Source: a virus
Direction: 5' to 3' (one strand)
DNA length: 64,000 nt
IMG/VR virus record: IMGVR_UViG_2563366553_000007
Both the position numbers and the translations under genes were made by a program. Position 1 is the stretch's first letter, and the number at the start of each line of letters is the position of its first letter. A model generated the notes under the pieces. The model had not been told where the DNA came from, ran no database searches, and saw only the letters and a program-made list of their open reading frames with translations. Positions 18,554 through 60,826 of the stretch are shown piece after piece.

Positions 18554-18568
18554 TAATAGTGTTTTTTA
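18537..18568. terminator. Bidirectional terminator
   Basis: The hairpin is AAAACACTATTATAATAATAGTGTTTTTT. Confidence 0.5.
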
Positions 18569-20500
18569 ACTTGCTATTTTGTTTTCAAGTTTCAATCTTT
18601 CAAGTTTTTCTCTTAATCTGGATATTCTATTTAGAGACTTAGTTTGTTCTATTGAATAATTTAAGGCTTCTTCTTCTCCTATCATAATTAACTTCTCTTT
18701 CGCTCTTGTCATACCTGTATAAATTAGATTTCTGTTTAAAGAGGTCCTTTGACTGTGGTGAATTGGCATTATTACAGCTGGAAATTCACTTCCTTGGCTT
18801 TTATGAATAGTCATAGCATAGCTTAATTCCAATTCGTCAATTAAATCTTCAGTGTAAATTACATTTTTATCATGTATTTTATATTCCACTTCTATTTCAT
18901 ATTCAAGTATTCCTTTTTGGGAAACTTTAGTGTATATTTTTCTTATAAATCCAATATCTCCATTAAATACACCTAAATTATAATTATTAGAGTTCTGCAT
19001 TACTCTATCCCCTATTCTAAAACAATTATAATTATCTATTACATATTCTGGGTTAGAGGATTTAGGGTTAAATTCTTGTTGTAAAACTCTATTTATTTCT
19101 TTAACTCCAATTTCATTTAATTTTAATGGTGTTAATATATAAATATCTTCAAATTTAAAATTGTATTTTTCCATTAAACATTTTATACTTCTTAGTATAT
19201 TACTTTTTATTTTAAAAATATTGCTCTCTTTCCAAAAAATAAAGTCACTTCCAGTTTTGTTTAATATATCAATCCCATCTCTTGAAGTTGTTAACAATCC
19301 TGAATTAACTTTGTGCGAATTTAAAATTATACTTGAATCTTTCGATTGCCTAAATATTTTATTAAGCTTAACAACAGGTATTATATTACTATCTATTAAA
19401 TCTTTTAAAATTAGTCCTGCTCCAACAGAAGGAAGTTGGTCCACATCTCCTACTATTATAACCATTGTATTTTCATTAATTTTAGAAATAAGTTTATCAA
19501 ATAGAGAAGCATCAATCATAGATGCTTCATCTATGATGACAACATCTTCTGTTATTTCTTCTAACTCTGTGTTTTTATATGGATTTATCTTCAACCCTCT
19601 GTGGATAGTAGAAGACTCCATCTTTATTAACTCTTTCATCCGATTGGACGCTTTTCCTGTTGGTGCAAGTAATCTTATTTTAACTTTAGGATTTATATAT
19701 TTTAAACAATTAACAATAATATTTGTTAAAAATGTTTTTCCTGTACCTGGCCCGCCTGTAATAATAGATAGCTTACTATTTAGAACTGTATTTAAAGCTT
19801 CTTTTCTTTTTAAATCTAAAGTAAAAAAGGTACTTTCATAATAAGATATAAAATTATTTATATCTTTTTTTTGTAAAAATTCAGACTTAGGTTTATTTAA
19901 TAAGTTTTTTATATTATTAACAATATTATTCTCTACATAATTATAAAAACTCTTATAAATGTAAGTGTTTCCTTTTTCATCTTTTTCTATAATTACTAAC
20001 TTTAATGCCTCTAACTCCTCTAATGCAAATTTAATTTGATCTTCGGATATGTTATTATTGCTATAACTACTAAATCTATTTAAAAATCTGTTTAAATTGC
20101 TAAAAACCATATCTCTATATATGCACATGTCTCCATTATTGTCTGTTCTATAATTAAGATATTCTAAAATGGCACACACTACACGTTTTTGGTTATCTGC
20201 ACTTAATCCAAGATTATTAGCTATTTTATCTGCATATATGAATTTTATATTACCATTAGTGCAAATAGAGTATGGGTTATTAAGTATCTTAGGTAAACTA
20301 AGCTCTCCATAAGTCTCATACACTTTTATTGCTACCCTTGTAGCTATTCCCATCCCTTGTATAAAGAAGGCTAATTCTTGAAAATTTTCAAATTCGATTA
20401 GTTGTTGGTATATAAGCTTTGCTTTTTTCTCTGTTATCTTAGGGACAGTCAATAAAATCCTATAATCATTTTTTATTAATTTCAAAACTCCCATACCCAA
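18566..20500 (-). CDS. RecD2-like SF1B helicase (N-terminal HhH + RecD-type helicase)
   Basis: The helicase motifs are GGPGTGKT, IIDEASM, VGDVDQLPSVGAG and TIHKSQGSEF. An N-terminal helix-hairpin-helix region is present. Confidence 0.8.
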   Translation of the reverse strand: MGMGVLKLIKNDYRILLTVPKITEKKAKLIYQQLIEFENFQELAFFIQGMGIATRVAIKVYETYGELSLPKILNNPYSICTNGNIKFIYADKIANNLGLSADNQKRVVCAILEYLNYRTDNNGDMCIYRDMVFSNLNRFLNRFSSYSNNNISEDQIKFALEELEALKLVIIEKDEKGNTYIYKSFYNYVENNIVNNIKNLLNKPKSEFLQKKDINNFISYYESTFFTLDLKRKEALNTVLNSKLSIITGGPGTGKTFLTNIIVNCLKYINPKVKIRLLAPTGKASNRMKELIKMESSTIHRGLKINPYKNTELEEITEDVVIIDEASMIDASLFDKLISKINENTMVIIVGDVDQLPSVGAGLILKDLIDSNIIPVVKLNKIFRQSKDSSIILNSHKVNSGLLTTSRDGIDILNKTGSDFIFWKESNIFKIKSNILRSIKCLMEKYNFKFEDIYILTPLKLNEIGVKEINRVLQQEFNPKSSNPEYVIDNYNCFRIGDRVMQNSNNYNLGVFNGDIGFIRKIYTKVSQKGILEYEIEVEYKIHDKNVIYTEDLIDELELSYAMTIHKSQGSEFPAVIMPIHHSQRTSLNRNLIYTGMTRAKEKLIMIGEEEALNYSIEQTKSLNRISRLREKLERLKLENKIAS

Positions 20501-26289: not shown

Positions 26290-26333
26290 AAAGATAATGA
26301 GGGATCATAAATAGCCCCCTCATTATCTTTTAT
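26290..26333. terminator. Bidirectional terminator
   Basis: The hairpin is AAGATAATGAGGG...CCCCCTCATTATCTT. Confidence 0.55.
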
Positions 26334-27213
26334 TTAATAAATTATTAATATTTCTATTAACCTCATCATTTTTTAAGATTTTTAAATATAGCTTTACTAC
26401 AGAAACCATTTCTTCTATAATATAGTCTAAAAATCTACTTTCTACTGCTAATTTTGGATATTCATTAGTAACTAAATATTTAATTACTCCAGCAATGGTA
26501 GATTTATATTCATAAAGAAGATACTTTTCTTGTTTCTCTATGCTTAATGGATTTTTAACTAAATAAGAAGATTTTGAATTAAAATCATACATTTTTTTTA
26601 CTATAGATTTTTTACACACATTTAAATAATTATCTTTAAACACCGTAAAATCAAACCTATTTTCTAACTTCTCCTTATAGGTAAACATCATATTAATAAA
26701 CTCGCATTCTAAATCTTTTTCATAGCTCATATTAAAATTAACCCAAAATTTTTTATTTTTTAATTTCATATCTAACGCATTAATAAAAGATAAAAAATCA
26801 ATTGAAGTGCAATTTTTTTCTATAGATAATTTATATGAAACTACAATATCTTTGGCCATATCTTGAGAAAAACCTAATAACATCAATTTTAGAATAAAGT
26901 AATTAAAAATAATTTTTTCTTCAGAAGAAGTAAGTTTATTATTGATTACAAAAGTTGTTTCAAACTCCTTAATCCAAGACATATCTTCATGAGCCAATTC
27001 TGTACCTATTTCATTTTTAAATACTTTGTTGACTATAGCATTTACATCTTTAGCTTTTATCTTATAATTACTATCTATATTGTCTATATTACCACTATAA
27101 TTTTCAAATACTAAATTTTGGAGATTAAGCTTTTTACATGATAATTTTAATTCTTTATTTGGACAATATAAAATATCTAAATCAAAGGTTAAAAAGTATT
27201 CACTTTCATACAT
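26323..27213 (-). CDS. Hypothetical protein
   Basis: The ORF is 296 aa. Confidence 0.4.
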   Translation of the reverse strand: MYESEYFLTFDLDILYCPNKELKLSCKKLNLQNLVFENYSGNIDNIDSNYKIKAKDVNAIVNKVFKNEIGTELAHEDMSWIKEFETTFVINNKLTSSEEKIIFNYFILKLMLLGFSQDMAKDIVVSYKLSIEKNCTSIDFLSFINALDMKLKNKKFWVNFNMSYEKDLECEFINMMFTYKEKLENRFDFTVFKDNYLNVCKKSIVKKMYDFNSKSSYLVKNPLSIEKQEKYLLYEYKSTIAGVIKYLVTNEYPKLAVESRFLDYIIEEMVSVVKLYLKILKNDEVNRNINNLLNKR

Positions 27214-27238: not shown

Positions 27239-27565
27239 TTAAAAAATCAAATCTTCCTTATTCTCGTTGTAATCATTAACATTGTTAATTTCATTAATTA
27301 TTTCAGTTGGCAATAATTTTTCCAATTCATTATATTTTTTACTAAAATCCTCTTTTAATGTTACTATCTCTTCTTTTACCTTTTGTGGATTAACCCCAAG
27401 GTTTTCTATTTCTTTTTTACATTTTTCATAAGAGTTCCTTAAGCTATTTAATTCTGCTTCACATTTGATTAAAGCCTTCCCTCCATCACTAATTATTTTT
27501 TCAAGAGTAGGAAGCTCCTTAACCATTGCTTCATAATTTAATTTCTTTTCTTTCATAAAAAACAC
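27239..27565 (-). CDS. Small coiled-coil protein
   Basis: It is 108 aa with heptad-like charged repeats. Confidence 0.4.
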   Translation of the reverse strand: MFFMKEKKLNYEAMVKELPTLEKIISDGGKALIKCEAELNSLRNSYEKCKKEIENLGVNPQKVKEEIVTLKEDFSKKYNELEKLLPTEIINEINNVNDYNENKEDLIF

Positions 27566-33816: not shown

Positions 33817-35388
33817 GTGGTTGCTTTGAATAAAGAAAACGCAAGGGAAGATTTTATTTTAATAATGCATGCAATTTATGAGCAAGAAAAATTTAAATTT
33901 ATAACTCAAAAATATTTTGAAGTGCATATGATTAAATCATATGAATCAATTGATGAGATTGCTACAGTTTTTGAAGATTTTTTATCTACAACAATTTCAA
34001 GTAAGTTGGATTTACTAACAACGCCTGCTAAAGCAAAAAAATTGAGAGCTTGGGAAATTTCATCCACTTGGAGGTTAAAACAAAACTGGGTAAAGATGGC
34101 ATTAGATTCTCTGGAGAGCAATAAAGCTGAAGCAAAATTACTAAAAAAAGAATATCTAACAATAAAGGAAGAATTCTTAAAAAATAAAGGTAAAATTAAA
34201 AGTATTGATTTAGAATCTCCAGAACAATTAGTAGAAATGCGAAAAAAAACATTAAAAGAATGGGCTACAGATAGTTCTTATAATATATCAGACTTTCCAT
34301 ATCTATCTGAAATGTCAGATGCTAAGATTAATTCTGCATTTACGCACGATTTGCTTTTATGCATAACTGAGATACTTAAAGAACAATATAAATTTAATAT
34401 AAATAACATAGTATTAACTACCCCAACTAATGTAGTCCCAGGGATTTTTCTTCCTACTTTACGACCTAAACGAAATAAAAATATTGAAATAATTAAAAAT
34501 GATGATAACTCTTTTGAATCTGGTACTTATGGAGCTAAAAACCACACTGGTTCTCAATTAAATATTTCCTACAAATTTAAGATAGATGAGGAAAATAGCC
34601 AAATTGAGAGCTTTAAAATGGAATTATATAATCTTGAGACAGAAGAGAAAGCATTACCAAAACTATCTCTTGATAAAAGAGATCTTGAGATTATTATTTA
34701 CATTGAAAGACTTTTTAATTTGGATACAGCATCTTTTTATCTAAGCGATTTATTAAAACATTTAGGATTAAAATCTCGCACAAAAGCAAATTATGATAAT
34801 GTAAAAAATAGATTGTTGAAGCTTCCTTACTATTCTATCTATAGTAAATCTACAGATGCGTTTGGACAAGTTAAAGAAATGTCTTTCAACTTTTTCAGTT
34901 CAGTTGAAATTTCTCGTAATGAAGGAGAAGGAGATATCGTAAAGGGAAGAGATATAGTAAAGGTAAAAAGATCTGTTTCACCTGACATGGAACGAATGTC
35001 AACAGATATTATGTATGAAAATGAATTAAAAAAAATAAAGTTGCAACAATCTATTAATCTTGCTTACTTCCTCGAAGGAAGAAGAAATTATCTAATCAGA
35101 AGTGGTGAAGATTTACAAAATAAGAAATATAGATTTACAATTGATCATTTGAAATATGAAGTACATTTAAGTGGAAAAAATAGTCTTAAGAAAAATATGA
35201 ATTATTTAGAACTTGGTTTCAATGAGATAATGGAGAATCAATTCATCATAAAGGATTATATACGAGGAGAAGACTTCTTTGATGTCGTTTTCTATGAAAA
35301 TAACGAAAAACAAAAATGCTTATTAAATACTATTCTTGGGTCTTTGCCTGATTATATTATTAATAATATAAGAGTAGCTCAATCTTAA
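33817..35388 (+). CDS. Hypothetical protein, candidate iteron-binding initiator
   Basis: The 523-aa ORF starts about 50 bp after the last degenerate box. No known motif was recognised. Confidence 0.5.
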   Translation: MVALNKENAREDFILIMHAIYEQEKFKFITQKYFEVHMIKSYESIDEIATVFEDFLSTTISSKLDLLTTPAKAKKLRAWEISSTWRLKQNWVKMALDSLESNKAEAKLLKKEYLTIKEEFLKNKGKIKSIDLESPEQLVEMRKKTLKEWATDSSYNISDFPYLSEMSDAKINSAFTHDLLLCITEILKEQYKFNINNIVLTTPTNVVPGIFLPTLRPKRNKNIEIIKNDDNSFESGTYGAKNHTGSQLNISYKFKIDEENSQIESFKMELYNLETEEKALPKLSLDKRDLEIIIYIERLFNLDTASFYLSDLLKHLGLKSRTKANYDNVKNRLLKLPYYSIYSKSTDAFGQVKEMSFNFFSSVEISRNEGEGDIVKGRDIVKVKRSVSPDMERMSTDIMYENELKKIKLQQSINLAYFLEGRRNYLIRSGEDLQNKKYRFTIDHLKYEVHLSGKNSLKKNMNYLELGFNEIMENQFIIKDYIRGEDFFDVVFYENNEKQKCLLNTILGSLPDYIINNIRVAQS

Positions 35389-35412: not shown

Positions 35413-35934
35413 TTATTTTAAAAATCCTTCAATTAGTTCATACTGACCATTTTTATTTAAATGTATTAAAGACATTATAAAATTTTGATTATAAAATAAA
35501 AAATAAGAGTATCCAAGTAATTCCATCTGAAGAAAAGCTTCTTCCTCAGACATAGGCTTTAATTTTATTTGTTTTCTTTTTATATCCTCTTTTTTTTGCT
35601 TATTAGTAGTTTTAATAACTTTTTTAAAAGGAATATTATTAGAATCAACATTTAAATTCATGTGATATATTTTATATAATTTTCTCTTTAAACGATTTGT
35701 AATTTTTTCTAATGATGAAAAAAAATCTCCTGAAACTTCATTCATTTTTATGATTTTTTTGTTGTATTCTAATAATAATTCTATCTTATAGCTTAATTTA
35801 TTTTGTTCAACTGTAATTTTTATATAGTCATTTTCTTTTAAAAATACTTCTAAAAAATTTAGTTTTTGATGAATGGCTAATTCGATATCTTTACTTATTT
35901 CTTTGTTATGTTTTTTTATGATTTTTATATCCAT
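35413..35934 (-). CDS. hpf: Ribosome hibernation promoting factor, long form (HPF/RaiA family)
   Basis: The N-terminal RaiA-like domain is MDIKIIKKHN...ELAIHQKL...KITVE. The C-terminal dimerisation domain, EEEAFLQMELLGYSYFLFYNQ...GQYELIEG, is characteristic of Firmicute long HPF. Confidence 0.7.
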   Translation of the reverse strand: MDIKIIKKHNKEISKDIELAIHQKLNFLEVFLKENDYIKITVEQNKLSYKIELLLEYNKKIIKMNEVSGDFFSSLEKITNRLKRKLYKIYHMNLNVDSNNIPFKKVIKTTNKQKKEDIKRKQIKLKPMSEEEAFLQMELLGYSYFLFYNQNFIMSLIHLNKNGQYELIEGFLK

Positions 35935-36067: not shown

Positions 36068-36493
36068 CTATTCTTTAATTTTATCTAATGAATATTTAAA
36101 AGTATATTCAGACGCAGGATAGAGTTCTATCTCTACTCGTGGGTTTTCTTTGTCTATAAAATCCATAATGACTACAGGTTTTAATAATTTATCATTTTTT
36201 ATTATTCCACTTTTTTCAATACCATCACAAATACTCTTTGGGTAGTTGTGTATATCTCTATTTCTCTTATCTGGAAAATATAATTTAATAACTGTTGTCA
36301 AATTCTCATTAAATTTATTATTTTTGTATTTAGAAGTAGAAATTGCTTTTACTGAACTCCAAGAAACTAATTCTTCATATTCTCTAAATTTTGAATACTT
36401 CCCCTTAGCTGGCATTATGGGCTTTCCGTTTTTCCCTGAGATTTTAAAATTTGATTTACTAATTGGTTTCCCTGTGACAACTATTTTTAACAT
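36068..36493 (-). CDS. rusA: RusA-family Holliday junction resolvase
   Basis: The protein is about 140 aa with an acidic catalytic cluster (DKRNRDIHNY...DGIEKSGIIKND) matching the RusA pattern. Confidence 0.65.
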   Translation of the reverse strand: MLKIVVTGKPISKSNFKISGKNGKPIMPAKGKYSKFREYEELVSWSSVKAISTSKYKNNKFNENLTTVIKLYFPDKRNRDIHNYPKSICDGIEKSGIIKNDKLLKPVVIMDFIDKENPRVEIELYPASEYTFKYSLDKIKE

Positions 36494-36496
36494 TAA

Positions 36497-37168
36497 TTAT
36501 ATCTGTAATATATTATTTTTGGATTTTCTTATGAATCTGTATTTAATTTCAACAGATTCATTTAAAGTTTCTAAATCAAATATCTCTCTACCATTACAAT
36601 AGTCACAGTCCACATAAGCGAAGTCATCTTCTCCTAAAGAAAAAATATCTTTCATTTTATTAAATTTCTTTTCAGATATACTGAGTTTAGATTCTCCACA
36701 AAGACATTTTAAATTAAATATTTTTTCTAACATGCCTGAATCGTATAAAAAATTTATAATTTTTGTATTAATTTTATTAGGGGTTTGTAATTCTAAAAAA
36801 GCAAAGTTTGGTATAATTATTTTATTTTCATATTTTGTTAAAAGCTCATCCAATTTAATTTTAATATCTTCATTTAAAAAAGTAATGTTATTAATTTCAG
36901 GATAATTATGAATTTTATTTAATTCTGGATAAAATTCTTTAGTTTTTTTAATTAATATTTTTTTAATTTGATTTAGTTTTTGAGAACTAACTCTATGTTT
37001 TATGCAATCATATAGTTTTTTTACTTCAGTGTGAGGTAAACAACCTAACTCTTCTAAATCTATATTTTCATTAAGTTTTTTTACTTCAAGGTATTTACTA
37101 TCAACCAACTTAGATAAGTAAGAAAACTCTTCGTTTTTTTCTAAAATTAATTCTATATTTAGTTTCAA
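36497..37168 (-). CDS. Hypothetical protein with C-terminal zinc-ribbon-like Cys pairs
   Basis: The Cys pairs are CLCGESK...CDYCNG. Confidence 0.4.
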   Translation of the reverse strand: MKLNIELILEKNEEFSYLSKLVDSKYLEVKKLNENIDLEELGCLPHTEVKKLYDCIKHRVSSQKLNQIKKILIKKTKEFYPELNKIHNYPEINNITFLNEDIKIKLDELLTKYENKIIIPNFAFLELQTPNKINTKIINFLYDSGMLEKIFNLKCLCGESKLSISEKKFNKMKDIFSLGEDDFAYVDCDYCNGREIFDLETLNESVEIKYRFIRKSKNNILQI

Positions 37169-37450
37169 ATTATTATACAGTCGCTATATATTATTAATAG
37201 CGATTTTCTCCTTTCAAATTAAAAATATTTATATAATATAAGTTTTTTATAATTATAAAAACTTTTATTTATATTAAAGTAAATGTTTTATCTATAAATA
37301 AAGTATAATACTTGCATTTAATATAGTCAACAAATAAAAGGTTTTTTATAAATAATATAAAAAATTTTATAAAATATCTTAATTGTATATATAATGAATA
37401 TGAAAAAGTAAGTATTATATATATAAATTAAAAAAGGGAGGATTTTTTAT

Positions 37451-40045
37451 ATGTTAAGATTTTTAGTTTTGGGAGATTGGCATTATTCAAGTAAAACTCC
37501 ATGGAGTAGAATCGATGATTTTAAAGATACAAGACAGAAAAAGACGAAAGAAATAATGGAAATAGCAAATAAATATAAAATAGATGCTTTTCTGGAAATG
37601 GGAGATTTCCTTAATTCAGATAGATTATCAGAACAGGAACTTGCCTCTTTAGCTAAAGACTTTAAGTTCTCTCAATTAAATAATAAAATACTGCAAATGA
37701 AAACAGGGGAGACAACTTTTAGAGAAATAGAACAAGATCTAAAAAGTTCTATTCCTGTTATTGGAACAATAGGAAACCATGAATTAATAGGGAATGAAAT
37801 CTCTTCTTTAGAAGAGACATCTTTAAATGTTTTAATTAGTTGTGGAGCTATAACAATTGCAACTAAAGAAAATCCAGTTATTTTTAAGGATAAAGAAGGT
37901 TTTTCTTTAGCAATAACCGGAGCTCCTTATACTCATAACATAGATGGAGAAGATAAATCTGCTTATATCGTTAATAAAAAGTTGGGAGATTTTCACATCC
38001 ATCTTGTACATGGATACTTAATGCCTAAAAGTTATGGTAAGAAATTTAAACATACGGTTGTTTCTCAAATAGCTCACACTAAAGCAGATTTGACAATAAA
38101 TGGACATGATCATACTGGCTACGATGAAATTGATATTAATGGGAAGAAATTTATTAATCCAGGTTCTCCATTTCGATTATCAGCGGAGCTTAAAGAGATT
38201 AATCGTATGCCAAAAGTTATTTTAATAGAAGTAGATAAAAATGGAATAAATTTAAAACCAATTTTTTTATCCTGTGCTAAAAAGGGAAGTGAAGTTTTAT
38301 CAAGAGAGAAAATAGCTAAAAAAGAAAAAAAATTAGAAAAAATAGAAGATGTAAAAAGCTTAATGAATAAAGCAGAGTTAGCCAAAGGGATAGATATAGT
38401 TGATATAGTAAAAAACATTGCAAAAAATAAAAATATAGATGATAGCATAAGAGATCAAGCTGTTAATAATATTGTAGAAAATATAAAGCTTATGAAAGTC
38501 CCTTTTTCTTCGAAAGGGAAATACACCATAACTGAATTAGAAATTATTAATTTTGCTTGTTTTAAACATGCTGTGTTTGAATTTTCGGAAGGGTTAAACG
38601 TTGTATCTGGAGTAAGTGGTCAAGGTAAATCAGCGGTACTTAGAGCAATAAGAGAAGTGTATGATTGTTATATTAAAAATCCAAGAAATCATATTTTAAG
38701 TGGAGAGGACTTTTTTAAAATAACATTATATTTAAGTAATGGGTTTGTAATTAGTAGGATAGTAGAAAACAATGAAGATAAAAATGGGAATAAAAGAAAA
38801 GGGAAAAATGGATATGAAATATTTGATCCAAACAAAGGTTGTATAGAATATTTTAATACAAAAGCAATAACAACAGTTCAAGAGATTTTAGGATTTAACA
38901 AAGTCAAATTATCTGAGAAAAGTAGTGTTGATGTAAATTTTATTAATCAAGGTGATCCTTGGTTCTTCGTTGGTAAAAATATGTCTTCTACAGATAAAGC
39001 AAAATTGGTAGGGAGTTTATATGGAACGCAATATGGAGATGTAGTAGTAAAAGAAATGACTTCAAATATAAAAAAAATAAATATGAAAAAAAATGTGATT
39101 GAAAAAGAAGTAAGTGAATTAGAAGAAAGAAAAGAAAGCTATAATTATGTTTTTAAATTAGAAGAAAATATTTATAAGGTAGAGAGTATTTTAAATGAGA
39201 TTAAATTAAAAAAAGAGTTAATAGAGAAGTTATCTAAATTTTCTCTTGAGTTAATAGAAAAAGAAAGAAGTATAAGTGAATTAGAAAAGAAAGTGTTAAA
39301 GCTAACTGAAAATAAAGAAAAAATTACAGATATGTTTGAACTGTTAACTAATAAGTTCTTTAAAATAAAAATTCTTGAAGAAAAATCTGCTGAACTTACT
39401 AAAGTGTTAAAATTAGGAACAGAATTAAGAGGAAAAGTAGAGGAATTAAAAGAAATCGATAAAGCACCTTTATTAATGTCCAACCTAAAAGACTCTTATG
39501 AGAAAATAGGATTAGAAGAAAAAAAATTATATGAATACAAAAAGATTGAAAGTGAAAAAACAAATATATACAAAAAGTATAAATATTTAAAAAAACAATA
39601 TAATGTTTTATTGGATATAGAAAAACAAATTAATAAAATTGAAGATTTAAAAAGTATAAATGAGACAATAAAAGAAAAATCTAAAAAGTTAAAGGATATA
39701 TATATATTAGAGGAAGAGTTTAAAAATATAAAAAATAGAATAGATAAATTTAATTCAATTAGATACAAATTAAATGACATTGAGGATATTGAGCTTAAGT
39801 TAAGTAATTTAAAAGAACAAAAAGAGAAGATAAAAATAATTGAAAAACAAAAAGAAGAATTAAATATAATATTCAATCAAGGAAAAGAAATGAAACATAA
39901 TATTGAGCAAAAAAAGGAATATCTAATAAATAAAATAGAAATATATAAAAAACTTTTGTTAGAAGTTGAAACATGCCCTATTTGCCACGCTAAAATAGAT
40001 AAAATAGTAGTAAACTCTATAATTAACAATCTGATTAATTTCTAA
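37451..40045 (+). CDS. SbcD/Mre11-like phosphoesterase fused to SbcC/Rad50-like N-terminal half (Walker A, coiled coil, CxxC hook)
   Basis: The RBS is AAGGGAGG. The N-terminal calcineurin-like motifs are VLGDWHY, GNHE and GHDHTG. An SbcC-like P-loop, NFACFKHAVFEFSEGLNVVSGVSGQGKSAVLRAI, follows. About 400 aa of coiled coil ends in CPICHAKID at the extreme C-terminus. Confidence 0.65.
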   Translation: MLRFLVLGDWHYSSKTPWSRIDDFKDTRQKKTKEIMEIANKYKIDAFLEMGDFLNSDRLSEQELASLAKDFKFSQLNNKILQMKTGETTFREIEQDLKSSIPVIGTIGNHELIGNEISSLEETSLNVLISCGAITIATKENPVIFKDKEGFSLAITGAPYTHNIDGEDKSAYIVNKKLGDFHIHLVHGYLMPKSYGKKFKHTVVSQIAHTKADLTINGHDHTGYDEIDINGKKFINPGSPFRLSAELKEINRMPKVILIEVDKNGINLKPIFLSCAKKGSEVLSREKIAKKEKKLEKIEDVKSLMNKAELAKGIDIVDIVKNIAKNKNIDDSIRDQAVNNIVENIKLMKVPFSSKGKYTITELEIINFACFKHAVFEFSEGLNVVSGVSGQGKSAVLRAIREVYDCYIKNPRNHILSGEDFFKITLYLSNGFVISRIVENNEDKNGNKRKGKNGYEIFDPNKGCIEYFNTKAITTVQEILGFNKVKLSEKSSVDVNFINQGDPWFFVGKNMSSTDKAKLVGSLYGTQYGDVVVKEMTSNIKKINMKKNVIEKEVSELEERKESYNYVFKLEENIYKVESILNEIKLKKELIEKLSKFSLELIEKERSISELEKKVLKLTENKEKITDMFELLTNKFFKIKILEEKSAELTKVLKLGTELRGKVEELKEIDKAPLLMSNLKDSYEKIGLEEKKLYEYKKIESEKTNIYKKYKYLKKQYNVLLDIEKQINKIEDLKSINETIKEKSKKLKDIYILEEEFKNIKNRIDKFNSIRYKLNDIEDIELKLSNLKEQKEKIKIIEKQKEELNIIFNQGKEMKHNIEQKKEYLINKIEIYKKLLLEVETCPICHAKIDKIVVNSIINNLINF

Positions 40046-40090
40046 AAAAGATACTGATAATAACTAAATTATTATCAGTATCTTTTTTAG
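40044..40090 (+). terminator. Rho-independent terminator
   Basis: The hairpin is AAAAAGATACTGATAATAACTAAATTATTATCAGTATCTTTTTT. Confidence 0.6.
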
Positions 40091-40462
40091 AAAAATATAA
40101 GTAATAAAATTATAGAGATTTATGAATATGCATAATATATTGTAAGAAATTAAAAAATTTAATTTTCTGCCTTAATAAAGGGCTTTACTAAGTGTAAAAT
40201 ATTAACTGGAGGTATTTCTAAATGGAATTTTTAATAAGACCTATGAAATTGAAGTTAGTAAATAAATATGTAATCCCCTAAGTTTATATAGGGGACCGTA
40301 TTGCCTGGGGAACCAGGCGATATCCTTAAAAAAGGAATACCTACTTTTGTAGGTATTTTTTATATATTTTTTTATGTTTAGATTTTTGTTAAAATATGTT
40401 ATATTAATTATAAAAATATATTGATTATATAAAATATATTATTTAAAAAGGAGTAGAGAATA

Positions 40463-43067
40463 TTGAGTAAAAAAAATAAAAAAATAAAAATTATTATTAT
40501 ATCTATTTTTATTTTTTTAATTATATCTCTTATAGCTTCCATTTTCATATACCTTTATTTAAAAAATGACATTAGTAACTATATAGAAAGAGCTTATAGT
40601 AAAACTGAAAGTATGGATAGGAATTCTTTTAATAACAGGGAAACAACAAAGATATATGATAATAATGGTAAATTACTGAAAGAGTTTAAGGTTAGAGAAT
40701 ATGATTATCAGAAATATAAAGATATAAACCCATATGTTTTTAAAGCTTTCATTGCAGTAGAGGATAAACGGTTTTATGAACATAACGGCATTGATTTTAA
40801 GGCTTTAATTAGGGCAGGAGTGGTTATATTAAAAGGTGGTAGCCTTCAAGGAGGTTCTACAATAACCCAGCAATTAGCAAAAAACATATTCTTATCTATG
40901 GATAGAAATATATGGAGGAAACTTGAGGAAGCAGTAATAGCTCAAGAAATAGAAAAAAAATTTTACAAAAAGTGATATATTAGAATTTTATGTTAATAAT
41001 ATTAATTTTGGCCATGGGTGTTATTCGGTAGAAACAGCATCAATGTATTATTTTGGAAAAAATACAAAAGATTTAAATGTATCTCAAATAGCTTTATTAG
41101 CTGGGATTCCAAATAATCCTTCTTTATATGATCCAATGTTAAATAAAGAAAATGCTATAAAACGAAGAAATAATATAATTGATAAAATGTATGAATCTAA
41201 ATTTATAACAGAAAAAGAACAATTAAATGCAAAAAAAGAAATACTTGAGTTAAATGTCAAAAAAAAATATTATGATAATAATATTAATGATTATGCTGTT
41301 GAGTATGCAATACAAAAATCTACTGAAGAAATTATGAAAAATAATGGTTTTCAATTCAGATATATGTTTGACAATGAAGAGCAAAGAAAAAAATACTCAA
41401 ATCTATACTCTTCAGAATATAAAAAATGCAGAGAAGAACTACTTAATGGTGGATATAAAATTAATACTTGTATTAATTTCGATTTACAGAATAAGCTTCA
41501 GTCTATTATAAATAAGGAAATGATTAAATATAAAAAAATAAATAAATCTAATAGTTTGTATATGAAACAATCTGCTTCTACTGTTATTGATAACAACACT
41601 GGAGAAGTAATAGCAATAGTTGGAGGTAGGACTCAAGAAGGCAAATCAAACACATTTAATAGAGCTTCTATAGGAGCAAGACAACCTGGATCAACTATGA
41701 AGCCTTTGATTTCGTATTTACCTGCATTTGAAAAAGGATATTCTCCAGATGACGAGTTTGAAGATAGACCAATTAATAAAGGTCCTTCTAACTGGTATAA
41801 TGGATATAAAGGACGTATAACCTTGAGATATGCTACTGAGATTTCTACAAATACTATACCATTTAGGTTAACTAAACTAAATGGAGTTGAGAAATCTCTC
41901 AAATATTTAGCTAAAATGAATTTTAAATATCTAACTTCAACAGACAGAACGCCTACTATAGCTTTAGGAGGGTTAACAAGAGGAGCGACGACAACTGAAA
42001 TGGCAAGTGCATATTCAACAATTGCAAGGAATGGAGAATTTATAGAACCTACAAATGTAAAAGAAATTAAAAAAATTTCAACTGGAGAAATTATCTACAA
42101 AAATAATAAAAATAAAAAAAGGGTATATGATTCAGGCGCATCTTATTTAATGACAGACGTTTTGAAAGGTAGTATTGAAAAAGAACATGGAACTTCACAT
42201 AAAGCTAAGCTTAATAATTATAAATACCAAGCTGGTAAAACAGGAACAACAAATGATAATAAAGATGCTTGGTTTTGTGGATATACTCCTTATTATACCA
42301 TGTCTGTATGGATAGGAGATGACATTCCTTCATACCAATCTTCATTAGAGTCAAATTCAGTTAAATATATATGGAATAAATTTATGAGTGGACTTCATGA
42401 AGGTAAAGAAGATGTAGATTTTAAAAAGCCAGATCAGGTTTATAGTAAAAATGGTAAGTTAAAGACATTAGGACCTCAAGAATTCGCAATTAAAAAAGAG
42501 AGATTAGATCTTGAAAAAAATAGAAAGAATAATGAAGCTGAAGTTCAAAAAGAGAGATTAAAAGAATTAGAATACAGAATTATATTTGGTTTAAGTGAAG
42601 AAGAAGAGACTATTAGAGAAATAAAAGCTAAAAATGATATAGAAAGTTTAAGAGAATATAAATTAATTGATTTAAAACAAGTAAAAGAAATAGATAAAAT
42701 TCTTTTAAAAGTAAAAAATAGTATAAATAATGTAAAAAGAAAATCTATATATGATGAGCTTATAGAAGAATATAGATTTTTAAATGATAATTTTAATGAA
42801 ATTAAGGAACAATTAAATAGGGAAAAAAGAGAAGAAGAATATTTAAAAGAGAAAAAAGAGAGAGAATATCAAGAAAAAATTAAGAATCAGATTAAAAATA
42901 ATGTCCAAGAGAATGTAGAAAAAGATACATCAATTAAAAATGAAGATTTAAATAATGAATTAAACAATGAATCAGATAATGAAAGTAACAACACTGAGGA
43001 CAGCCAAGAAAATAACAATAATAAAAATGATGATACTGAAACTAATAATAATGAAAATAAAGTTTAA
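40463..43067 (+). CDS. Class A penicillin-binding protein (GT51 transglycosylase + transpeptidase), frameshifted at A8T4 run about 40953-40964
   Basis: The GT51 motifs EDKRFYEHNGID and GGSTITQQLAKN lie in ORF 40463..40975. Continuation of the GT51 domain (DILEFYVNNINFGHG) lies in the next frame, followed by the transpeptidase motifs STMKP and KTGTTND in ORF 41043..43067. The tail is Asn/Asp-rich. Confidence 0.8.
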
Positions 43068-57616: not shown

Positions 57617-60600
57617 ATGGGAATAAAAAAAATATTAAGTAGATTTCTTTTTAAGAACAATATATCTGAACAAAAGGTAAATGGGGTAATTTTAAGTGGG
57701 AATACTATAATACAAGAATCAAATACTTACAAAAATGAAAAAATTGTAGATGAGTATATGAAGGATAAATTAGATGAAATAGAGTCTTTATTTGATAGGC
57801 AAGAATATGAAGAAATAGAGGATAAGATTAACTGGATATATAGAAAAAAACAAGATAGGTTTAGCGAAGCTGTTGAAAGAAAATTATTACAATATAATTG
57901 TTTTTTAGCACTATTAACAAATAAGCAAGAGAGATTATCTGAATATTTTAAAGAACTTGAAGCATATGGAGATAAAACGGCTGAGTTTCTAAATGTTAAA
58001 TTTAACATAGCTACTTTTTCACAAAGTGATAGTATTTTTAAAGAGTTAAAATCTACATGGGAAAGTCTTGATATGGATAGTTCAAAAATAGATAGTAATG
58101 AAATTAAATACTTATATTTTTCTAAACAGTATGATGTTTTAATTGAAAGATTTAACAATGAAAAGGATTTAGATGCACCAGAGATAAAATTATATGTAGC
58201 TAAATCTTTTATTAAAATTGAAAAATTTGATGAAGCAGAGAAACTCTTATTTGAAATTAAAGAAAAAGGAGATACATATAAAGCTGAATATATACTTTGC
58301 AAAGCCTTATCTGTATTTAGTATTGATAGAGAACTTGGTGAACTCACAGAGGGTGAGAGGGTTGTTTTTAGTGACTGTATCGAAGAAATAAAAAATATCA
58401 ATTTAGAGAAATTGGAATTTAATCAATTTAGAGAAATATCTTATTATAAACTTCAAATGATTTTATTTAGTGACAAGAGCTTAGCACTTGAAGAGATTTC
58501 TAATCTTTCAGATAAATTTGAAAAAGATACTGAATTTTATGTTTTAAAAATAAATATTTTTAATTTAAATGGAAAATATGAAGAAGCTGATAAGATTTGT
58601 AAATACCTTTTAGAAAATAATGGTAATATTAATATATATATATCAAGTGTTATTAATAATTGTTTATGTATGGAAAATTGGTCTAAAGTAAAAGAATTAT
58701 TTATAAAATATAGAGATTATTTAGAAAATATAGACTTTGCTTTTTATGCATATGGTTTTTCTCTATTGAATCTATATGGAGAAGAATACACAATTAATGT
58801 AATAGAAAAAGAATGTAAAGCAGAAGGAAATCTGATAGATTTTTTGCGTGCTAAAGCTAACTCGAAGAATAAGGAAAAGAGTGAATTTTATTTAGACAAG
58901 ATTGTTAACAATACAAAAAATAAAGACCTTATTTTATTAGATGTTGCAGATGAATATATGAATATGGATAATACTGAGAAGTCTTTGGCTATAGTAAAAG
59001 AAAATAGTATTTATGATATAAGATTTCTAAAGAGATACATATCCATTACAATAAGTAAAAATATGGAGGCGTATTTTGATGATATTTTAGATATTTATAT
59101 AAGATGCTACATTGATACTTGTAATGAATATGTAGAGAGAGGTATTTATTCTATTTATATTAAAAAAAAGCTATATAGAGGAGCTTACTTTATAGCAAAA
59201 AAAGCATTTAATAATACTAAAAAATTATATTGGCTTAATGAACTAACACGAATGAAATTAATAAATAAAGAACTAATTGATTTAAAGGAATTTGCCGACA
59301 TATTAAACAATGAGAAAGATTTACAGTATTTAATGACAGCGAGTGAAACCTATTTAAAACTTGGAGAAGTGACTAAAGCAAGAGAATTAAGTTATAAGAT
59401 TGCTTTTAATATGAACAATATGGACATAGATTCAGCTATTAGAATTTGGCAAATTTTATTGTCTAATGAAATACAAAACGTATCTGATTTTGAAGAACAT
59501 AAAGATTTGATTAAACAAGTTGAACTTGATGATGTTATTATATTAAAATCAGGTAAAGAAGAATTAAAAGTTTGTTTAAATAAAGAAGTTTTTTACAGAA
59601 TAAATGATATCCGATTTGGTTGTTTACATATTAATATGAATGAAGGTTTATGGATAGAACTTTTAGGAAGTAAAGTTAATGATGAAATTAACTTTAAACA
59701 AAAAGAATATAAAATAATAGAGATAATTAATAAATATGATTTTTTAACAAGGTCATGTTTTAATATTAGAGTTAAAGAAAAAGATGATAATATAAAAATG
59801 CTTTCAATAAATGAGAAGGACTTAATTGAAAACACTGACAATGATTTAATACGTGAACTCCAAAAAGATATAGATAATTTTAATAAACGTCTTGATGGTT
59901 ATTTAGGAAAAGATAAATCAATGGGAGGATTTGAACTACCTATAAATTATCTGCTTCCACAGATAGAAAATGTTAATGGGAATATTGATTATTTACTAAA
60001 AGACAAAAACTTGTTTTTTAAATCAGGGATGTCAAATATTATAGAAGAAGGAAGTAAAGTTGTATTAACAATAGTTAGTACTTTATTATTGAGCAAAGTC
60101 AATTTACTTGATGAATTTATGAGTTATTATGATGTTTATGTACCAAGGCGTTTAATTGAAAGTATAGAAGACACAATAAGTGAATTAACTATTAATTTTA
60201 GCAATAAAAGCGTAAAAATATATTCAATAGAGAAAAAGTTGGTTTTTTTTGAGAAAGATCAAAAAGAAAAAAAAATAGAATTAAAAAACTTCAATAAGAT
60301 AATTGAATCTTTAAAGAAAGGAAAAATAATTTCTAAAGATATATACATAAAACACTATGTATCTATACCTGAACAGGTTATGTATTCTGCAGATATGGAA
60401 GCTTTTGAAATTTCAAAAGCTGAAGATACTTCTATATTCATAGATGATAAATTTACCTGCTTATTATATAGTACAATTCATAGTCAAAGACGTTCTAATA
60501 TGGCTGGATTTATAAATTCAATACTGTTTAATGATTTTAATAAATATTGGAAAATAGCAGAGCAACTAATAAAAAGTAAGTATGAATATTTTTTTAATTA

Positions 60601-60826
60601 TATTGATTTAGAAACACTTGTATTTAATTTAGATGTAGGCACAAGAAATAATATTAAGAAATTTAAGCATGTGTTTAAAATAATTTTAAAAAATGATATA
60701 AACGGTTTTTATTCTTTATTATTAAGATTTATTTGTACAGATATAACATTTATACATAAATCATACTTTAAATATAAAATAAAAATAGATATTATAATGG
60801 ATATAATATCAAACTTAGAAAAATAA
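57617..60826 (+). CDS. Large (1069 aa) hypothetical protein, helical-repeat rich
   Basis: The ORF is uninterrupted. The N-terminal half has TPR-like amphipathic helices. No Walker or nuclease motif was recognised by eye. Confidence 0.5.
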   Translation: MGIKKILSRFLFKNNISEQKVNGVILSGNTIIQESNTYKNEKIVDEYMKDKLDEIESLFDRQEYEEIEDKINWIYRKKQDRFSEAVERKLLQYNCFLALLTNKQERLSEYFKELEAYGDKTAEFLNVKFNIATFSQSDSIFKELKSTWESLDMDSSKIDSNEIKYLYFSKQYDVLIERFNNEKDLDAPEIKLYVAKSFIKIEKFDEAEKLLFEIKEKGDTYKAEYILCKALSVFSIDRELGELTEGERVVFSDCIEEIKNINLEKLEFNQFREISYYKLQMILFSDKSLALEEISNLSDKFEKDTEFYVLKINIFNLNGKYEEADKICKYLLENNGNINIYISSVINNCLCMENWSKVKELFIKYRDYLENIDFAFYAYGFSLLNLYGEEYTINVIEKECKAEGNLIDFLRAKANSKNKEKSEFYLDKIVNNTKNKDLILLDVADEYMNMDNTEKSLAIVKENSIYDIRFLKRYISITISKNMEAYFDDILDIYIRCYIDTCNEYVERGIYSIYIKKKLYRGAYFIAKKAFNNTKKLYWLNELTRMKLINKELIDLKEFADILNNEKDLQYLMTASETYLKLGEVTKARELSYKIAFNMNNMDIDSAIRIWQILLSNEIQNVSDFEEHKDLIKQVELDDVIILKSGKEELKVCLNKEVFYRINDIRFGCLHINMNEGLWIELLGSKVNDEINFKQKEYKIIEIINKYDFLTRSCFNIRVKEKDDNIKMLSINEKDLIENTDNDLIRELQKDIDNFNKRLDGYLGKDKSMGGFELPINYLLPQIENVNGNIDYLLKDKNLFFKSGMSNIIEEGSKVVLTIVSTLLLSKVNLLDEFMSYYDVYVPRRLIESIEDTISELTINFSNKSVKIYSIEKKLVFFEKDQKEKKIELKNFNKIIESLKKGKIISKDIYIKHYVSIPEQVMYSADMEAFEISKAEDTSIFIDDKFTCLLYSTIHSQRRSNMAGFINSILFNDFNKYWKIAEQLIKSKYEYFFNYIDLETLVFNLDVGTRNNIKKFKHVFKIILKNDINGFYSLLLRFICTDITFIHKSYFKYKIKIDIIMDIISNLEK

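Follow-up and report, generated by a model that had tools for sequence, protein, structure and literature searches.

The 64,000-nucleotide stretch analysed here (hereafter the window), taken from the IMG/VR virus record IMGVR_UViG_2563366553_000007, contains a gene whose 864-residue product begins as an SbcD/Mre11-like nuclease, continues as the N-terminal half of the ATPase SbcC/Rad50 and stops just past the zinc hook, and it raises the question of where the second half of the ATPase resides, or whether one is needed at all. A preliminary description had left two answers standing, a split Rad50 with its C-terminal half supplied by a separate gene and a truncated, non-ATPase tether. The window was found to be 100% identical to the last 64 kb of NC_017177.1, a 300,869-bp circular plasmid of Clostridioides difficile BI1 (window position = NC_017177.1 position minus 236,867), and this plasmid encodes, outside the window, a 222-residue protein carrying the missing ATPase motifs. 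We consider that the 864-residue protein is very probably one subunit of a split Mre11-Rad50 (SbcCD-type) complex processing DNA ends or hairpins, because the two proteins complement each other in their motifs (only the fused protein has Walker A and a Q-loop; the C-lobe protein has the signature, Walker B and H-loop), because both halves resemble Rad50, and because their genes co-occur on 14/14 plasmids and are linked in operons.

The fused protein and its C-terminal end

The coding sequence (CDS) of 864 codons (37451..40045, + strand; CDBI1_RS20335 / WP_009899584.1, annotated 'AAA family ATPase') is preceded by a ribosome-binding site read from the sequence (GGGAGG, 37436..37441, +), 9 nt 5′ of the ATG. 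Pfam searches of the product gave Metallophos at residues 2-222 and AAA_23 (SbcC/Rad50 N-terminal) at residues 363-633, both exceeding the curated cut-offs. Invariance in the fused family was read from an alignment of 32 homologues, 31-94% identical with essentially full coverage, in which all five phosphoesterase motifs (G8-D9-x-H11, G51-D52, G108-N109-H110, H184/H187 and G218-H219-D220-H221) are invariant. From the Pfam match, the invariant columns and Foldseek, the Mre11/SbcD-type phosphoesterase with its capping domain was assigned to residues 1-285 (37451..38305, +). The AlphaFold2 (AF2) model of the whole protein (mean predicted local distance difference test score, pLDDT, 75.6; ~90 over residues 1-280) has the nuclease and the N-lobe well folded, and the best 50 Foldseek matches in the PDB were all Mre11/SbcD structures (E 4.6e-13 to 1.8e-9; 282-332 columns, capping domain included). 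The nuclease part is predicted from this model to have the Mre11 fold. Among the NCBIfam models, no Mre11 or SbcD model (TIGR00619 sbcd, TIGR00583 mre11, NF0410xx) matched the protein.

The Rad50/SMC-type ATPase N-lobe, residues 357-525 (38519..39025, +), was recognised by AAA_23, SMC_N and AAA_29, of which SMC_N matches 30/32 members of the fused family, and by an NCBIfam Rad50 N-terminal match (E = 1.2e-7). By phmmer it weakly matches chain A of the two-chain Pyrococcus furiosus Rad50 entries (1ii8_A, 1f2t_A, 1us8_A and 3qkr_A). Walker A (G387-S394, 38609-38632, +; G387..G392-K393) and the Q-loop (Q500, 38948-38950, +; Q500-G501) are invariant in the 32 homologues. These results agree with the order of Mre11/SbcD motifs and Rad50 Walker A lobe described from the sequence, as does the lack of the remaining motifs: the signature motif, Walker B, D-loop and H-loop were not found in the 864-residue protein by Pfam, NCBIfam or PADLOC profiles or in the alignment. 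The profiles of LmuB, the best PADLOC match (E = 2.1e-12, profile positions 2-491 of 611), and of the NCBIfam models for TrlF and Rad50 align only as far as the start of their C-terminal ATPase lobes.

The N-lobe is followed by a helical rod (coiled coil; residues 526-839; 39026..39967, +), as assigned from AF2 secondary structure, and by the Rad50-type zinc-hook motif C842-P-I-C845 (39974..39985, +), lying in CPICH at residues 842-846 with a 19-residue tail after C845 and then the stop, as had been noted. A protein library search gave more than 120 full-length fused-family relatives, 32-99% identical and 796-919 aa long; they come from metagenomes and from Clostridioides, Clostridium, Paenibacillus and the Bacillus cereus group. 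Of the library homologues, 118 possess Walker A plus a CPxC motif 45 residues or fewer from the C-terminus. RNA folding located a perfect 24-bp hairpin over the stop codon (40040..40092, +), with an A-run and a T-run at its flanks, dG of -28.2 kcal/mol and z = -12.1 (0/200 shuffles equally stable). The hairpin is probably a bidirectional intrinsic terminator, in line with the strong terminator reported immediately 3′ of the gene; a simple terminator scan gave no call at it, which is probably explained by pairing of the two flanking runs within the stem. There is no in-frame continuation of the gene, and in the 420 nt downstream no + strand open reading frame (ORF) exceeds 26 aa. Two additional hairpins occur in this 420-nt intergenic region, which separates the fused gene from a penicillin-binding protein (PBP) gene, at 40272-40297 and 40332-40361, one of them a 13-bp stem followed by a T-run; in Rfam, the hairpin matches of the region were all below gathering scores.

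A separate C-lobe protein and the four-gene family

Searches of phage genomes by tblastn revealed that gp8 of the jumbo Bacillus phage 0305phi8-36 shares the fused architecture, with 27.6% identity over residues 1-535 of the 864-residue protein (E = 3e-39) and the CPxC end too. Three genes 3′ of gp8, gp5 (236 aa) has a short N-terminal helix followed by SRGGG, ILDEP and VTHQ, and from these motifs it reads as a putative Rad50 C-lobe; in Clostridium botulinum, 5.7 kb separates the fused gene from a homologue of gp5. Within the 64-kb window, phmmer and hmmsearch with gp5, the C. botulinum protein and a two-sequence profile detected no C-lobe gene. A tblastn search of 72,556 plasmids with the C. 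botulinum C-lobe hit NC_017177.1 at 192275-192913 (E = 3e-32, 99% coverage), corresponding to a 222-aa CDS (NC_017177.1:192257-192925; CDBI1_RS19965, annotated 'chromosome segregation ATPase') that lies outside the window, 82 kb from the fused gene. The protein carries DSGG (signature), NVFDEP (Walker B plus D-loop) and STHD (H-loop), and in a seven-member alignment of the C-lobe family G128-G129, D156-E157-P158 and T190-H191 are invariant. Against the PDB, the C-lobe profile found Rad50 first (Methanocaldococcus jannaschii 3aux, E = 2.9e-10) and then the B chains of the P. furiosus two-chain entries, Rad50 structures outranking ABC transporters, SMC and RecN. Thus, the C-terminal half that the preliminary description proposed to seek on the replicon was found as regards signature, Walker B and D-loop, but its returning coiled coil is limited to an N-terminal helix of at most ~85 residues. 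AF2 was confident for the first ~50 of these; the model of the C-lobe alone has low confidence (pLDDT 57), and only the length of this helix was used.

Relatives of the C-lobe are numerous: a hidden Markov model search of 1.84 billion cluster representatives gave 331 clusters (50% identity) at E <= 1e-10, and the best 150 are all stand-alone proteins of 76-259 aa; a word-index homologue search gave only 3 matches. When all plasmid ORFs were searched, one Rad50-type N-lobe (the fused protein), one C-lobe and one homologue of a small protein, described below, were detected. Other candidates for the C-lobe were rejected. The 'AAA family ATPase' at window 18566..20500 (-) is instead a RecD2-type superfamily 1 (SF1) helicase, with the domains HHH_RecD2, AAA_19/AAA_30, SH3_13 and UvrD_C_2, and the small ORFs 3′ of the B. 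cereus and C. botulinum fused homologues encode a small helical protein.

The fused gene is present in 14/72,556 plasmids of PLSDB, and these are identical to the 14 with a C-lobe match at E <= 5e-7. In at least 7 of them the two genes are same-strand neighbours. The two genes lie ~0.3-0.5 kb apart on one strand in Paenibacillus thiaminolyticus, Paenibacillus polymyxa (two records), Geobacillus and Aneurinibacillus, and with the same spacing in Brevibacillus, Clostridium baratii and Alkaliphilus plasmids; in a Bacillus velezensis plasmid the C-lobe gene likewise adjoins the fused gene, but on its upstream side. On the plasmids of Clostridium perfringens, Bt407 and Jeotgalibacillus and on two Clostridioides plasmids they are 6-82 kb apart. 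A small gene of 92-96 aa occurs between the fused and C-lobe genes in the compact plasmid loci, and intact operons were seen in P. thiaminolyticus, Geobacillus and P. polymyxa pSC2. The small gene lies directly 3′ of the fused gene in B. cereus, C. botulinum and phage 0305phi8-36, and its family has the pattern helix-'LGVDP'-helix, with two helices of ~40 residues each. Profile A3, built from five operon-encoded small proteins, detected in the window a small helix-turn-helix protein of 105 aa with an 'LGVNP' turn (27239..27556, -; CDBI1_RS20295; E = 1.7e-13), which is the homologue of the operon small protein and probably the third subunit. The adjoining 296-aa ORF (26323..27213, -), tried as the equivalent of phage gp6, is unrelated (E = 1.5); gp6 itself (L006 10605-11321) is an extra 238-aa gene between the small-protein and C-lobe genes of 0305phi8-36, without a family match.

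A HerA/FtsK-type ATPase of 606 aa is encoded 7 nt 3′ of the C-lobe gene on the C. difficile plasmid, outside the window (NC_017177.1 192933-194753; L007 9659-11479). A HerA-like ATPase (~610 aa) lies directly 3′ of the C-lobe gene also in P. thiaminolyticus, Bt407 and P. polymyxa pSC2, and the C. difficile and P. thiaminolyticus proteins are 38% identical (E = 2e-150). The best NCBIfam match of the HerA-like ATPase is the double-strand-break repair HerA (E = 2.4e-19, far below the cut-off). In total, 4 plasmids and 7 genome loci have a HerA-like gene linked to the C-lobe gene, and on mobile elements it usually follows the C-lobe gene.

For a wider view of the family, genomes were scanned with the C-lobe profile, one genome per species, giving 176 loci of which 80 were kept, and IMG/VR contributed 33 loci; the resulting 113 loci (80 genome and 33 viral) were searched locally with module profiles. 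The genome loci hold an operon in which nuclease (~330 aa), N-half (~480-515 aa), small protein (~85-110 aa) and C-lobe (~222-228 aa) follow one another on the same strand, with four modules complete in 78/80 and the other two cut by contig ends. In phages of ~50-60 kb the order is N-half, small protein, C-lobe and nuclease, and four modules are complete in about 28/33 viral loci. The N-half and C-lobe genes are operon neighbours in more than 100 loci. Among the 113 loci, the nuclease and N-half are fused only in L017, L098, L102 and L121 (= phage 0305phi8-36); the fused form is a minority variant, the nuclease being separate in most of the family. The stand-alone 329-aa nuclease aligns to residues 2-342 of the 864-residue protein (E = 1e-51) and the stand-alone N-half to residues 360-859 (E = 1e-23); therefore, the 864-residue protein is an end-to-end fusion of the products of two genes that in the chromosomal operon are adjacent and slightly overlap. 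The fused gene arose by such a fusion within an ancestral four-gene operon. The three-helix linker, residues 286-348 (38306..38494, +; AF2 helices 286-307, 316-326 and 331-348), belongs to the nuclease module, as the alignment of the stand-alone nuclease reaches residue 342, and it is the counterpart of the helical extension at the C-terminus of that nuclease and a candidate Rad50-binding region.

In Bacillus solitudinis the operon stands in the context cinA-recA-[operon]-rny-ymdB. recA is immediately upstream in 70/80 genome loci (range L018-L095; for example, L039 7239-10588), and all four flanking genes are present in 64; the insertion between recA and rny/ymdB was seen in lineages including Thermoactinomycetaceae, Halalkalibacter, Shouchella and Alkalihalobacillus. 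Of the ten loci lacking recA, six have a HerA-like gene, a seventh is the fused, HerA-linked L017, and three are cut by contig ends; chromosomal operons linked to recA have no HerA-like gene. The position of the operon between recA and rny points to a role in repair or recombination. Beyond chromosomes, the family was found both in phages (temperate ones and one jumbo phage) and on megaplasmids from the B. cereus group, C. difficile, C. botulinum and C. perfringens.

Proposed complex and alternative explanations

In the proposed complex, the N-lobe and C-lobe would associate non-covalently into a complete ABC head, as in the engineered two-chain Rad50 catalytic domains, and two such heads would sandwich two ATP molecules and clamp DNA, while the Mre11 domains would form a dimer that cleaves hairpins or DNA ends. 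Its probable role on the plasmid would be replication-associated repair or recombination of the element, possibly together with the HerA-like motor. Here "its" refers to the whole complex. How the rod is arranged is a separate question. AF2 places its helices at residues 526-563, 565-664 and 669-839, followed by the CxxC loop and a short helix at 851-863. In the fused family, the distance from Walker A to CPxC falls into classes of 392-397 aa (n=66), 434-455 (n=45) and 482-503 (n=7), and the self-similarity of the rod peaks at lags of 54, 47 and 101 over a 3.5-residue periodicity, so that the rod appears to be a coiled coil of ~50-aa repeats, variable in number; the lengths of the partner proteins are constant across the rod-length classes. 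The rod (~310 residues) would have to pair for the most part with a second copy, in parallel, or with itself, folding back, because the partners can contribute no more than ~85 residues of returning helix.

In the hook, CPxC is invariant in 32/32 aligned fused homologues, and the N-halves that combine Walker A with a C-terminal CxxC have the consensus G-x-C-P-[TLVI]-C-[GE] in 106/106 cases, with 4-41 residues to the end (medians 10-17); the Pfam model Rad50_zn_hook (PF04423) matches 8/32 members of the fused family (best E = 1.8e-5). No invariant Cys or His was found in the C-lobe or small-protein alignments, and a four-ligand zinc site would therefore need two CPxC motifs, implying dimerisation of the N-half. 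By analogy with Rad50 hooks, we infer that two CPxC motifs share one zinc ion, joining two rods and dimerising the N-halves.

One geometry compatible with such a hook is a parallel, two-stranded, single-pass rod formed by two N-halves, with the terminal hook closing its far end and the C-lobes docked in trans at its base. We hold this geometry only tentatively, at somewhat under an even chance, and leave the remaining probability to a rod that folds back on itself or to some other arrangement. Among 66 N-halves of equal length, no conserved Gly/Pro apex was found in mid-rod, the only conserved breaks of the rod being a Pro ~35 residues into it and a Gly ~27 residues before the hook; the lack of a mid-rod Gly/Pro column may argue, weakly, against a fixed fold-back point, and tandem repeats of the same polarity would fit the parallel rod somewhat better. 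The AF2 model has a break in the rod at residues 664-669, with low confidence. To our knowledge, a single-pass rod closed by a terminal hook is a topology not known for any SMC or Rad50 protein.

Several observations weigh against a split Mre11-Rad50 complex as described here. The three genes do not lie together on the C. difficile plasmid, the distances between them being 10 kb and 82 kb. The curated NCBIfam cut-offs for Mre11, SbcD, Rad50 and SbcC are reached by none of the components: the stand-alone nuclease orthologue scores 24-41 bits against Mre11/SbcD cut-offs of 78-600, and the best Rad50 model gives the 864-residue protein 30 bits against a cut-off of 700. The 864-residue protein itself has no Rad50_zn_hook match at E <= 0.1. 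In the rod, ~230 of the ~310 residues cannot be paired by the C-lobe or the small protein, and AF2 confidence is only 50-60. The biological role, finally, is deduced from homology and gene context.

Among the alternatives, the one that survives best keeps the split architecture and assigns the mobile-element versions, working with the HerA-like ATPase, mainly to conflict between elements, be it defence against phages or plasmids or counter-defence. Such a role would agree with LmuB as the best PADLOC match, with the additional matches of the HerA-like partner to 'anti-phage-associated helicase HerA' models, with the richness of the plasmid in defence genes, including a CBASS module 4 kb from the C-lobe/HerA pair, and with the occurrence of the HerA-like gene beside the split system mainly in non-recA, mobile-element-like contexts. 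However, the similarity to LmuB is generic to SMC-like proteins and ends before the C-lobe, and the best match of the HerA-like ATPase is the archaeal double-strand-break repair HerA. The immediate neighbours of the fused gene are RusA, HPF and PBP and not effectors of the LmuA/LmuC type; no such Lamassu partner is among its annotated neighbours, which were not scanned against PADLOC. Moreover, the unfused orthologous operon occupies a housekeeping repair context between recA and rny in 70/80 species, and the phage versions occur in temperate and jumbo phages, where SbcCD-like proteins count as core recombination machinery (PMC7824862). A role mainly in conflict is, on balance, unlikely.

We regard as quite improbable that the fused protein functions on its own, being a nuclease equipped with a rod for tethering and with a degenerate, non-hydrolysing P-loop, and that it has no need of the 222-aa protein. 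The fused gene does have its own ribosome-binding site and terminator, and on the C. difficile plasmid the C-lobe gene lies far off in another operon, with the HerA-like gene. Half an ABC domain, however, cannot hydrolyse ATP, and the invariance of Walker A and Q-loop in 32/32 homologues, down to 31% identity, indicates selection on nucleotide binding, which disfavours the truncated non-ATPase tether considered in the preliminary description; the C-lobe accompanies the fused gene on every one of the 14 plasmids, and the two halves are adjacent in more than 100 loci, as expected for its other suggestion, a split Rad50. There is a negligible chance that the ORF represents a full-length SbcDC fusion reduced to a truncated pseudogene or cut short by an assembly or frameshift artefact: the profiles of the full-length relatives LmuB and TrlF align over only their first ~80% and the neighbouring PBP gene does appear frameshifted, but the family-wide conservation of the C-terminus, with the 118 homologues from many genera and the stand-alone N-halves stopping at the same point, already refutes it, and no coding remnant lies downstream of the strong terminator at the stop codon, so that a missed frameshift or stop error is excluded.

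Related systems and plasmid context

Mre11-Rad50/SbcCD is a universal machine for processing double-strand breaks and hairpins, and the way in which ATP hydrolysis is coupled to end recognition and nuclease gating through the coiled coil and hook is under active study. The canonical complexes of Escherichia coli, Thermotoga maritima, P. furiosus and M. jannaschii have the same Mre11 fold, ATPase motif set, long rod and CPxC(G) hook as the split system. The split system differs in that its ATPase consists of two polypeptides plus a small third protein, in that the N-half stops 4-41 residues past the hook, the returning arm being only the stub of at most ~85 residues on the C-lobe protein, in the fusion of the nuclease to the N-half in the window protein, and in scores far below the curated cut-offs. 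In the engineered two-chain Rad50 domains (1F2T/1F2U, 1II8, 1US8 and 3QKR/3QKS), separate chains likewise form an active ABC head, the N-lobe matching the A chains and its partner the B chains; these are, however, laboratory truncations lacking the coiled coil, whereas the system in the window is a natural split that keeps the outgoing rod and hook. Archaeal Mre11-Rad50-HerA-NurA operons have a linked HerA-family ATPase, as do the C-lobe/HerA-like pairs on mobile elements, but the latter score far below the curated HerA cut-offs and no NurA-like gene was noticed among the annotated neighbours of the HerA-like genes (annotations only; no NurA profile search was made). LmuB of Lamassu has an SMC/Rad50-like N-lobe and coiled coil in common with the 864-residue protein, and RloC also uses a CxxC hook; unlike the 864-residue protein, LmuB and RloC each combine the two ATPase lobes in one chain and have dedicated effector partners.

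The family combines three unusual traits, namely, an ATPase made of two polypeptides, retention of the outgoing arm and hook, and an essentially absent returning arm. If the single-pass rod is true, nature has already deleted the returning arm, and cultivable Bacillota with the recA-linked operon would allow the contribution of arm and hook to be tested; the split family would thus be a tractable system for coiled-coil and hook function and likely represents an unrecognised repair pathway in Bacillota. Fusions of Mre11 and Rad50 have been described in Mimivirus R555, a C. kluyveri plasmid, a Deferribacter megaplasmid and phage 0305phi8-36 gp8, one P-loop NTPase segment of which 'was not observed' (Yoshida, Claverie & Ogata 2011, PMC3175470). 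These, too, join an N-terminal Mre11-like and a Rad50-like part in one chain on plasmids and phages, but in most of them the Rad50 part is complete and has Walker B as well as Walker A, whereas the window protein belongs to the incomplete subclass without one segment. The segment 'not observed' in gp8 appears, from the motifs of its product, to be the separate gene for phage gp5, and the split design explains the 'missing P-loop segment' remarked on in 2011. SbcC and SbcD were reported as near-universal in jumbo phages by a survey of 2021, in which no split is mentioned (PMC7824862), and our full-text literature searches, an incomplete survey, turned up no account of a Rad50 or SbcC that is split in nature. 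The split Mre11-Rad50 system is widespread and apparently undescribed. In PHROGs the two halves are entered under the generic names 'exonuclease' (phrog_16465) and 'ATPase' (phrog_15167), and Pfam and NCBIfam have no model specific to any component. Current labels of the components are 'metallophosphoesterase', 'AAA family ATPase', 'hypothetical protein' and, misleadingly, 'chromosome segregation ATPase' or 'ParA', which identification of the split family permits to be corrected.

The annotated neighbours of the fused gene encode RusA, HPF, a hypothetical protein and a PBP. The HPF/RaiA ribosome-hibernation homologue and the RusA resolvase lie just upstream (35413..35934, -, and 36068..36493, -). 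An HPF-like gene, a topoisomerase gene and a gene for a type IV secretion system coupling protein flank the fused homologue in B. cereus-group and C. botulinum elements (L001 6477-7013 and L002 4522-4890), which suggests a common megaplasmid backbone across Bacillota. The plasmid also encodes LigA, RusA, a RecD2-like helicase and ribonucleotide reductases. The class-A PBP downstream is contained in two ORFs in different frames (window 40463..40975, +, and 41043..43067, +), annotated by PGAP as two CDSs; the first ORF covers positions 2-105 of the PBP transglycosylase profile and the second covers 130-177, and from this the gene appears to be a frameshifted or split PBP1A-like gene. Large window ORFs without a Pfam match were found at 57617..60826 (+; 1069 aa), 33817..35388 (+; 523 aa) and 36497..37168 (-; 223 aa), the last of which is divergent from the fused gene and encodes two CxxC-like pairs near its C-terminus. 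Elsewhere, the plasmid is rich in defence and mobile functions, with a CBASS-like pair of a DncV-like cyclase and a SAVED protein (NC_017177.1 196779-199271; L007 13505-15997) 4 kb away from the C-lobe and HerA-like genes, a CRISPR-Cas locus of type I-B that includes Cas3 (NC_017177.1 75935-83678; L011), further IscB and TnpB genes, and dozens of DUF4116 genes.

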